DNA of 64,000 bases from Escherichia coli O157:H7 (lineage in GTDB: Bacteria > Pseudomonadota > Gammaproteobacteria > Enterobacterales > Enterobacteriaceae): the NCBI RefSeq assembly GCF_013167455.1, contig NZ_CP038328.1; one strand, 5' to 3'. Shown here in pieces: positions 12,001-15,000 of this stretch. Each line of letters opens with the position of its first letter. Position 1 is the first letter of the stretch. Position numbers: made by a program.

Positions 12001-15000
12001 TTCCGTGGCGCATAGCACTGCCAGCTGAATAACACATCCCCGTCAATACGGCCCTCGCTGTACGCTTACGCGTAATCGGGGCAGACGCTATTACAAAGCT
12101 GTTGATGCTAATAACCGAGCCAACAGAATGGCGAAAAGGCCAAAACCGTGCTTACTGGATCAAAATTTACCATTGCGAAAGCTTGTTCTGGAAAAGCTGG
12201 AGATGAAATGGTCTCCAGAGCAAATATCAGGATGGTTAAGGCGAACAAAACCACGTCAAAAAACGCTGCGAATATCACCTGAGACAATTTATAAAACGCT
12301 GTACTTTCGTAGCCTGATTACCACTATAAAAAGGCTGCTATTGAGTATGTTGCTCAGATGCTCATATCAAATATCGGTAATCTTGAGGAATACACATTTG
12401 TTCCCGTACCACCATCCAAATGCCGTACAGATGCCGCTTACGATGACCGTATGACAGAAATTCTGCGAATTGCGCAAACCTACGAACCATGGCTGGATTT
12501 CTGGGAACTGGTTGTGCAAAACGTATCAACAATAGCCTCTCATACCGCAACAAACCGGCCCTTACCAGAAGCGATTATGGCAAACTACCAACTGGATGAA
12601 CAATTACTGGAAGGGTGCAGGCCCTAGATTGTTATTTTTGATGACGTTCTCACTGCCGGTAGTCATTTTAAAGCGATGAAAAGCCTGATACTACAACATA
12701 TTCCTGAAGCCTGTATACTGGGACTCTTTGTTGCCCGAACAACCCGGGGAGCTCAAATTATTTAAAAAGGGTAAAGTACTCCTTAAAATTAAATCACTGA
12801 TTCATCGCCGTCAGCTATAATCCTGTACCCCATCGCTTTATAACCCCGCTGACGTTTATCCCACATTCTGAGCAGCACAGGATACGCGGTATCCACAAAA
12901 TCAATGATCCTGACATCGCTTTTACCGGTATGCTCTCTGTGAAGACGCCCTGCATACTGCTGTAATGTCCCTTTCCATGACACAGGCATGGCAAGAATCA
13001 GCGTATCCAGCGGAGGGTGGTCAAATCCCTCACCAATAAGTCTGCCTGTTGACAACAAAATTCGAGGAGAATCGGGAGGAAGAGCATTCAGCCCGGATAT
13101 CAGCATCGCACGCTTTTTTTTCGATAGTCGACCATGGAGAATAAAGGGAGACAATTTCAGTGAATTCATCACTGATGCTATCTCATCCAGATGATCTGTA
13201 CGTTCAGTCAGTACCAGAACTTTTCGCCCCTGCCCGAAAGCTTTCATGGCTTCTTCAGCTATCGCCACCGTTCTGTCATGATCCAGAGCAATTTCTCTGA
13301 AAATATCCTGGATTCTCGCATCCGATGGTAAATGACCAGATGTAAAACGGGAACGGATCAGTACCTCCAGATTATGTGGGCTTTCCTTCGGGCGGACCGC
13401 TGTATGGCGAATGGCACCACAGTACATAAAAATAATGGGATGCAGACCATCCCGTCGGATTGGTGTTGCCGTCAGGCCAAGCAGATATCTGGCATTCGTT
13501 TCCTTCAGAATCGCAGAAAATGAAACCGCGCCAATATGATGGCACTCATCCACAATGATTTGCCCATAATTCCTGACCAGAGGTTCAACTTCTCCTTGTC
13601 TGGATATGGACTGCACCACCGCAATATCAATATTGCCACAGGGTTTATGTTTACCTCCCCCGATAATACCAATACTGTCACCGGCCTGCAGAAACACCGC
13701 GAGACGCTCCTGCCACTGCTTCAGCAATTCAGTCCGGTGTACCAGTATCAGTGTATTCACTTTCCGCTTGGCAATCACTGCCGCTGCGGTAACTGTCTTA
13801 CCAAAAGCCGTTGGCGCACAAAGCACACCAGTGTCATAACGGAGTAATGCCGAAACGGCCTCTTCCTGCTCCGCTCTGAGGTTTCCCATAAAAACGGCAT
13901 TACATTCCGTCCCGGCAAATCGTTTATCGATTAATTCTGCAGCAATATTGTTGTCCCTAAGGAAAGATAATACGCTGTCCAGACATCCCCGGGGCAACGC
14001 AATGTGTTGCGGGTAATTCTCCGCACAACCTATAACACGGGGCTTATTCCAGACTGACATACGCATTGCCTGAGCCTTATAAAACTCAGGGTTCGGAAAT
14101 GCTGCCAGCCGAATAAGTCGGTTAATCAGCACCTGAGGTAATTGCGCTTTTTCGAAATAGATCTGGTTTGCCAGCGTGATTTTCAGCGGTTCTGCAATAG
14201 AAATATTCAGTCTGTTTCCTGATGATTTTTTCTCTTCCCACGGCGTACCCAGGTCTTCTTCGTTGATAAAATTCACATCCAGAGGATGGATACTCCCTGT
14301 AGCCCGTAATATCGTCGGTTCAATATCCTGCACATTCATCGGGGTCACCGATACAAGAAAAGCCCACTGATCAGGATAAGGCTGGAGATTCATATCAACA
14401 AAAACGCTTCCCCCCAATTCACGCGGTCTTTTTTGCAGAGGTAACGCTATGAGATTACCAAATCCCCCTTTTGGCATAGTATCCTGATTAGGAAATAATC
14501 GGTCATAAGACCCCAATCGCAGCTGTCGGGTCCGACTACACGTATAGCTAATAATAGCAGTCCCCAGACGGCGAGCTTCGCGGGCCGAAACTCGTGAGGC
14601 AAAAAATATCCAGACATGCGCCCCCTGACGTGAACGGGATATTTCCAGCGCAGCAGGTACACCCAGCTCATCACAGGATCGCATGAATGCGGATGCATCC
14701 TTCTGCCATTCAGCTTCATCAAAATCAACTGCCAGAAAATAACAGGAATCATCTTCCAGCAACGGATACATCCCGACAGTATGGGTACCGGCCAGATGGT
14801 GGTAGATGACGAGATCGGATACAGGAATCAACTGACGGTGAGCGCAGTCCCCACATTTTATCCGGGGTTTACCGCATATTCTCGCCTGCCATTCGTTAGC
14901 GCAGGCAGGAGAGTACCCTGATTTGCCGCTGGTTTTACTTTCCCATCTAAGTGCCCATACATCATCACGCCCACGAAACAACCGACGAAATAATGCAACC

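Follow-up and report, generated by a model that had tools for sequence, protein, structure and literature searches.

A probable short-type shosT pseudogene joined to an IS30 fragment in an Escherichia coli O157:H7 genomic island

ShosTA is said to have been first described as a toxin-antitoxin pair, by Kimelman in 2012, and a 2022 study by Millman is reportedly also among the references on it. It is a two-gene system, classed with both toxin-antitoxin and abortive-infection defences, that protects against T7 and lambda (Rousset 2022, PMC9122126; bioRxiv 10.1101/2022.05.11.491447). Its toxin, ShosT, is a PRPP-binding protein that disrupts purine metabolism, a D331A/D332A mutant of ShosT is non-toxic, and its partner, ShosA, binds single-stranded DNA and RecA (Pu 2025, PMC11961720; Yang 2026, PMC12961424). 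All of these experiments were done with the 424-aa two-domain ShosT of APEC O1, and it is for this long form only that neutralization of toxicity by ShosA and phage protection have been demonstrated (PMC9122126, PMC11961720, PMC12961424). The antitoxin of a second system, PsyrTA (RqlHI), is also DprA-like. ComF/ComFC is a PRTase-fold competence protein that acts with DprA in natural transformation, and ShosT too is functionally paired with a DprA-family protein. According to literature cited in PMC9122126, some retrons have PRTase-domain effectors.

The 64,000-nucleotide stretch of E. coli O157:H7 contig NZ_CP038328.1 that was analysed (called the window here) contains at 12313-12765 what is very probably a non-functional pseudogene. 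It comprises the 3' three-quarters of a shosT gene of the short type, which encoded the PRTase toxin of a ShosTA module. ShosTA is an already known system, and this remnant reflects the commonplace decay of genes in a pathogenicity island rich in IS elements. The features of the region, in window coordinates, are as follows.

9271-9627, plus strand: left part of an IS30 copy (nt 1-357, left end intact), a 100% match to IS30A nt 1-358
9628-12069, plus strand: ISEc8 (IS66 family, 2442 bp) inserted in the IS30, with an 8-bp target duplication (GCGTAATC) on either side
12070-12312, plus strand: fragment from the interior of IS30 (nt 350 to about 592), a partial IS30 transposase in RefSeq
12313-12314, no strand: deletion junction, a 2-bp microhomology (CC) between IS30 at about nt 593-594 and shosT nt 175-176
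12313-12765, plus strand: probable shosT pseudogene remnant, codons 59-208 and the stop codon, as aligned to the intact genes of loci L002, L003, L005, L006, L017 and L018
12451-12627, plus strand: 58-codon ORF, RefSeq "hypothetical protein" WP_000136079.1, lying within the pseudogene and terminated by the amber codon (placed by converting L001 feature 6139-6315 to window coordinates)
12625-12627, plus strand: amber codon, Trp163 TGG to TAG by G to A at 12626, with D168-D169 five codons downstream
12640-12666, plus strand: PRPP-binding loop codons (DDVLTAGSH), sequence intact, downstream of the amber codon
12789-15149, minus strand: intact gene (2361 bp) for an AEP-primase and SF2 helicase, a "TOTE conflict system AEP domain" protein (Pfam AEP-TOTE at 1.8e-98, ResIII and Helicase_C)

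Intact versions of the locus consist of a 297-codon DprA-like gene and, after a 4-bp overlap, a 208-codon gene that converges on the primase-helicase gene; the 208-codon gene is WP_000175354/5, a "hypothetical protein" in RefSeq. A DprA-like gene followed by an overlapping PRTase gene is also the arrangement of ShosTA, and both proteins of the intact locus fit the PADLOC profiles that the characterized APEC O1 proteins fit (APEC O1 sequences from Table S2 of PMC9122126). For the ShosT profile PDLC03962 the E values are 2e-50 with the intact 208-aa ortholog and 2e-53 with APEC O1 ShosT; for the ShosA profile PDLC03961 they are 4e-103 with the 297-aa DprA-like partner and 2e-85 with APEC O1 ShosA. 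Further matches of the partner are to S. pneumoniae DprA (8e-31), the PADLOC PsyrA profile (8e-27) and two crystal chains of ShosA, 8ZVA and 9VZO (E 4e-21); unlike in PsyrTA, however, the toxin here has no match to PsyrT, and no RecQ-like helicase toxin is adjacent in the intact loci. The fragment in the window itself matches PDLC03962 at E 1.4e-33 over profile positions 59-213 of 237.

An AlphaFold2 model of the intact ortholog, built from a 54-sequence alignment (pLDDT 90.3, pTM 0.89), has as its top Foldseek match in the PDB the ShosT-PRPP-Mg structure 8ZVC (E 1.6e-5), a moderate match with a TM of about 0.5 and an RMSD of about 7 A. The next matches are H. pylori ComF 7P0H (E 5.6e-5), the further ShosT entries 8ZVD and 8ZVB, PyrR, XGPRT and PRPP synthetase, all of them type-I PRTase folds. 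Residues D168, D169, T172, G174 and H176 are invariant across the 54 family members, and hhalign of the family alignment with APEC O1 ShosT pairs D168/D169 with D331/D332, in the PRPP loop only; as a whole this comparison with the 424-aa protein is not significant (E 0.027, probability 1.8%). Searches of PDB sequences with phmmer and the family profile likewise gave no significant match, only PRPP-loop matches at E 0.3-1.7, and Pfam gave no match to the intact ortholog at E<=1. Since direct sequence comparison is non-significant, homology to the long ShosT is carried by the shared PADLOC profile and the fold. The sequence-only reading of this DNA had taken a motif at the end of the fragment for a PRTase signature, and that identification holds: the fragment fits the ShosT profile, its Asp-Asp pair aligns with D331/D332, and the model's best fold match is ShosT with bound PRPP. 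With a fragment E value of 1.4e-33 against the PADLOC ShosT profile, the match goes far beyond what chance would give.

The likeness to ShosTA extends to carriage on prophages and islands and to conservation of the PRPP-loop aspartates in a PRTase fold. The characterized ShosT, however, has 424 aa with an N-terminal pyrophosphatase/HAD-like domain, whereas the short family (208-220 aa) is PRTase only and has its own conserved 58-residue N-terminus; the 54 aligned relatives of the 208-aa ortholog are 207-230 aa long with a single PRTase domain each. The intact ortholog does not have the two-domain architecture (PPase/hydrolase plus PRTase, 424 aa), and as judged from sequence and model it appears to be a short, PRTase-only ShosT subtype. 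By analogy, this subtype may be expected to behave like the characterized long ShosT. To our knowledge, it has been the subject of no experimental study. An adjacent, co-oriented shosA is present in the intact loci and in four other genera and is absent from the window, where IS30/ISEc8 lies upstream of a truncated and amber-mutated shosT; because shosA is deleted, the window holds the remnant of a family member and not a working system.

Some of the same matches could point to a PRTase-fold gene of another kind, namely a ComF-type gene, a metabolic amidophosphoribosyltransferase or purine/pyrimidine PRTase, or a retron PRTase effector. The UniRef cluster carries the label "ComF family protein", some relatives are named "amidophosphoribosyltransferase", H. 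pylori ComF ranks second among the structural matches, and the NCBIfam comF model shows weak similarity over the PRTase core (E 0.019). That model scores only 14.9 bits, however, against a cut-off of 233.55 (TIGR00201), the Pfam PRTase models are all below threshold, and the context is a mobile two-gene toxin-antitoxin cassette, not a competence operon. PADLOC reports ShosT alone, with no match to a retron model, and no reverse transcriptase lies beside the pair in the annotated or called-gene loci inspected. The conserved DprA-like partner with its 4-bp overlap reproduces the ShosTA arrangement and the top fold match is ShosT itself, and an origin from one of these other PRTases is barely credible; the gene is much better described as a short-type shosT.

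The left edge of the shosT remnant was mapped by comparing the window with both IS30A and intact shosT. In BLAST, nt 1-358 of the IS30A of K-12 MG1655 correspond to window 9271-9628 and nt 350 onward to 12070-12314, and the ISEc8 stretch between them is annotated in RefSeq as tnpA, tnpB and an ISEc8 transposase. Identity to IS30 ends at 12314 and identity to shosT begins at 12313 (nt 175, codon 59). The break in IS30 falls at about nt 594 of 1221, internal rather than at an IS30 end; the loss thus came about by deletion between one point inside IS30 and another inside shosT, not at a transposition end. The deletion took shosA, the upstream region of the operon and 58 codons of shosT. In the conceptual translation of 12301-12768, a TAG at 12310-12312 precedes a frame that is open from 12313 (PDYHYKK...EGCRP), the residues directly past the amber codon at 12625-12627 read IVIFDDVLTAGSHFKAMKSL..., and the whole remnant after that codon is IVIFDDVLTAGSHFKAMKSLILQHIPEACILGLFVARTTRGAQII, with a TAA stop at 12763-12765.

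These results confirm what the sequence-only reading described and support each part of its interpretation, with more precision. It had described a frame open from the IS30 junction and interrupted by TAG at 12625, both of which are seen in the translation, and had suggested the remnant of a larger gene, which the intact loci bear out with 58 more shosT codons and a whole upstream shosA. The comparison with intact homologous islands that it proposed yielded TGG at the interrupted codon and a start of homology at codon 59. Its attribution of the loss to IS activity is supported by the position of the junction beside IS30, with the refinement that the event was an internal deletion with 2 bp of microhomology and not a plain insertion. 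The IS30 transposase frame, seen as an ORF at 12128-12454, continues past the junction in a different frame from that of shosT; an IS30 transposase-ShosT fusion protein was considered and ruled out, since the two reading frames differ.

The remnant aligns base for base with six intact 627-bp E. coli genes (96.5-97.6% identity). All six of these alleles have TGG at codon 163, so the amber codon is a true nonsense mutation of an ancestral TGG. Programmed read-through of the amber codon was considered as well and was ruled out, the intact alleles all having TGG and the gene in any case lacking a start. The remnant is not a complete ORF: it has neither a start codon nor codons 1-58, and its codon 163 is TAG. 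The deleted codons 1-58 account for 11 of the 27 invariant columns of the family, and six others, D168/D169 among them, lie past the amber codon. By analogy with the characterized protein, the Asp-Asp/PRPP loop should be needed by ShosT for PRPP binding and toxicity, and on sequence grounds each of the two lesions alone should abolish activity.

The following course of events would account for these features. An ancestral operon would have comprised shosA (297 aa) and then shosT (208 aa), overlapping by 4 bp and converging on the primase-helicase gene. A single deletion would have removed shosA, the presumed promoter region and the first 58 shosT codons; its end points, one within a resident IS30 copy and one at shosT nt 175, would have been joined at the 2-bp microhomology. 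A G to A change would have turned the Trp163 codon into an amber codon shortly before the codons of the Asp-Asp/PRPP loop. Joint loss of the antitoxin and the start of the toxin is a viable one-step route to the loss of a toxin-antitoxin pair.

The remnant still contains an ATG-started ORF at 12358-12627 as well as the RefSeq CDS at 12451-12627, and its sequence is 100% conserved across hundreds of genomes. Such features might suggest that a functional small protein is still made from the 89- or 58-codon ORF, or a C-terminal peptide, with a dominant-negative or regulatory role. The conservation, however, reflects the recent spread of one island allele, because the flanking DNA is equally identical. 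The ORFs include neither the PRPP loop nor the 11 invariant N-terminal residues, every intact gene reads TGG where the amber codon stands, and a promoter and terminator scan of 11800-13200 found nothing above chance, including no promoter-like site upstream of the remnant. We therefore give almost no credence to a functional small protein, and as far as the sequence allows a judgement the shosT pseudogene would yield no functional product. An Rfam scan of the same 11800-13200 interval found no family match.

Six substitutions in the 453 nt of the remnant are private to it: Y121F, R122W, S142L, W163* and two synonymous changes. R122W falls on a position with at least 90% conservation, which proves nothing by itself. 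The private differences of the remnant (6/453 nt, 1.3%) compare with 54/2361 nt (2.3%) in the adjoining intact helicase gene; this comparison shows no measurable excess in the remnant, and decay after inactivation is for that reason not demonstrated by it.

A 478-bp region here is 100% identical in hundreds of complete E. coli genomes of serotypes O157:H7, O26, O111 and O103. Of 5426 complete genomes, about 478, from these four serotypes, carry the IS30-shosT junction and the amber codon together; counted separately, the junction is in 478 genomes and the TAG allele in 479 records. An uninterrupted version of the gene is found in 38 of the 687 complete E. coli genomes that have any shosT-homologous sequence; examples of intact carriers are OkiPb01677, where the pair occupies NZ_AP042483.1 1182894-1184410, N2512, CEC13091, 1303, O111:NM 14614 and the atypical O157:H7 LSU61. 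An attempt to establish which lesion came first relied on allele-specific 61-nt queries. With TGG in place of TAG, this local background is found in 11 records, each with an intact shosA-shosT pair, and TAG and the junction are perfectly linked; because of this linkage, either the truncation or the amber mutation could have come first.

In O157:H7 TR01 the remnant lies in an integrase-bounded island with urease, traT and many IS elements, where the local order is YfjI, Gp2-like, AEP-helicase, remnant, IS30 fragment, ISEc8, IS600 and traT. The IS stack, made up of the IS30 split by ISEc8 and a truncated IS600, is situated between the urease/traT region and the integrase end of the island. In this the remnant, amid nested and truncated IS elements, resembles the IS-associated pseudogenes of EHEC O-islands (the SpLE1 or OI-43/48-type tellurite-urease island), and such a nested-IS setting is typical of decayed cargo; the only notable point of difference is that the breakpoint is inside IS30 and not at its terminus.

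The remnant is separated from the stop codon of the convergent helicase gene by 23 bp (12766-12788). That the fragment converges on a helicase gene had been noted from the sequence, and the convergence is found both in the window and in the intact islands; the helicase nevertheless does not belong to the module. All intact E. coli loci examined have the pair tail to tail with the AEP-helicase gene. Together with the RefSeq name "TOTE conflict system" and the Pfam AEP-TOTE match at 1.8e-98, this adjacency could be read as evidence that the PRTase, the lost DprA and the AEP-primase/helicase make up one three-gene "TOTE" conflict system of which the remnant is a damaged component. A literature search found no paper describing a "TOTE conflict system" or AEP-TOTE. 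The pair occurs with the same overlap but without the AEP-helicase in Klebsiella, in Salmonella, in a Pseudoteredinibacter integrase island and in a Tolumonas lambdoid prophage, and homologous PRTases are present in temperate phages of Burkholderia, Pseudomonas and Ralstonia, in two of which (Burkholderia phage Mana and Pseudomonas phage Riah) an annotated DprA lies beside the PRTase.

In the other direction, 1763 E. coli genomes contain the TOTE gene or fragments of it, compared with 687 that contain shosT sequence of any kind, and about 1000 E. coli genomes have helicase fragments without the pair. The neighbours of the TOTE gene in E. coli are HTH, YfjI and Gp2-like backbone genes, with differing cargo downstream. 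The PRTase/DprA pair is thus not a conserved component of the TOTE loci, and ShosTA functions as a two-gene system (PMC9122126; PMC11961720); a three-gene system is highly improbable. Because the pair occurs without the helicase and the helicase without the pair, the helicase looks like part of the island backbone and ShosTA like cargo placed at the boundary of backbone and cargo, so far as the gene content of these loci indicates.

What is new in these observations is modest: a correction of annotation and the existence of a PRTase-only ShosT subtype. The RefSeq "hypothetical protein" entries for the intact gene and for the 58-codon piece should be shosT and part of a shosT pseudogene, respectively. 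The main EHEC serotypes share a tellurite/urease island in which the ShosTA cassette is defunct, and an orphan PRTase fragment adjoining a helicase gene should not be counted as a system in censuses of defence systems. The PRTase-only subtype is widespread in Enterobacterales and temperate phages. It is very unlikely that the short subtype, having no pyrophosphatase domain, is a mechanistically distinct toxin and that its inactivation in the EHEC island mattered biologically. In that event loss of the cassette could have eased the gain of the many lambdoid (Stx) prophages present in O157:H7, O26, O111 and O103, since the characterized DprA plus PRTase system blocks phage lambda (PMC9122126). 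Selection for the loss has no support here; one already-dead allele spread with the island.

Other lesions are found in the same corner of the island. In O104:H4 and O121 shosT has a different truncation, in which an IS66-family element cuts the gene at query position 236 and the TGG codon is intact. N2512-type genomes have kept shosTA and have lost most of the helicase gene through an IS66 insertion. Since the O104:H4/O121 truncation differs from that in the window and the N2512-type genomes have lost the helicase gene instead, decay in this part of the island is recurrent and IS-driven.

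The shosT/helicase locus has decayed independently in other E. coli. In genomes of the O104:H4/O121 type, an IS66-family element truncates shosT (the gene for the phosphoribosyltransferase, or PRTase, toxin of the ShosTA defence pair) at another point, and Trp163, the codon that is amber in the shosT remnant of the window, is intact. N2512-type genomes retain shosTA intact, and there an IS66 insertion leaves only the last 138 bp of the helicase gene; the helicase gene is also reduced to an N-terminal fragment in about 1000 E. coli genomes. Typical O157:H7 strains carry the dead shosT allele, whereas LSU61, an atypical O157:H7 of deer origin, has an intact shosA-shosT pair that adjoins terW. 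The LSU61 island is a divergent version, in which the helicase gene is 3.8% different. The loci concerned, in coordinates local to each, are:

HUSEC2011 (O104:H4), 6001-6242, shosT cut by an IS66-family element
N2512, 6471-6608, helicase gene remainder, 138 bp
LSU61 (O157:H7), 5086-6602, intact shosA-shosT pair

To the left of the shosT remnant in the window lies a pile-up of IS elements:

7723-9270, truncated IS600 (IS3 family) transposase gene, from the annotation of the equivalent island in O157:H7 strain TR01
9271-12314, ISEc8 nested within a copy of IS30

The left end of the IS30 copy is intact at 9271. A complete ISEc8 (2442 bp, 9628-12069) divides this copy at nucleotide 357/358 and is accompanied by an 8-bp target duplication, GCGTAATC. 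At the junction with shosT, IS30 sequence breaks off at about nucleotide 594 of the element, and the right half of the copy is absent. The truncated IS600 gene adjoins traT and the left end of IS30; it too belongs to the series of IS elements that separates the shosT remnant from the urease/traT region.

On the other side of the remnant is the island backbone:

12789-15149 (-), intact AEP-primase and SF2-helicase gene (Pfam AEP-TOTE, 1.8e-98)
15304-15867 (-), inovirus-Gp2/YagK-YfjJ-like gene accompanying the AEP-helicase gene
16688-18091 (-), YfjI (DUF3987) gene, likewise accompanying it

These three genes form a conserved trio that recurs in many E. coli. In the library of papers searched, no publication on the "TOTE conflict system" was found. 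In several of the intact loci (L002, L006, L017 and L018), a cdiB/cdiA contact-dependent inhibition locus lies upstream of shosA, on the other flank of the ShosTA pair; the region therefore gathers conflict and competition cargo.

Long-form ShosT has a pyrophosphatase domain; the short family lacks such a domain, yet its N-terminal 58 residues hold 11 invariant positions (D9, H16, D23, C25, G29, Y31, T32, S40, N43, L45 and K50 in an alignment of 54 members). In the same alignment an invariant histidine, H176, closes the PRPP loop, at the position where classical PRTases have Thr or Ser.
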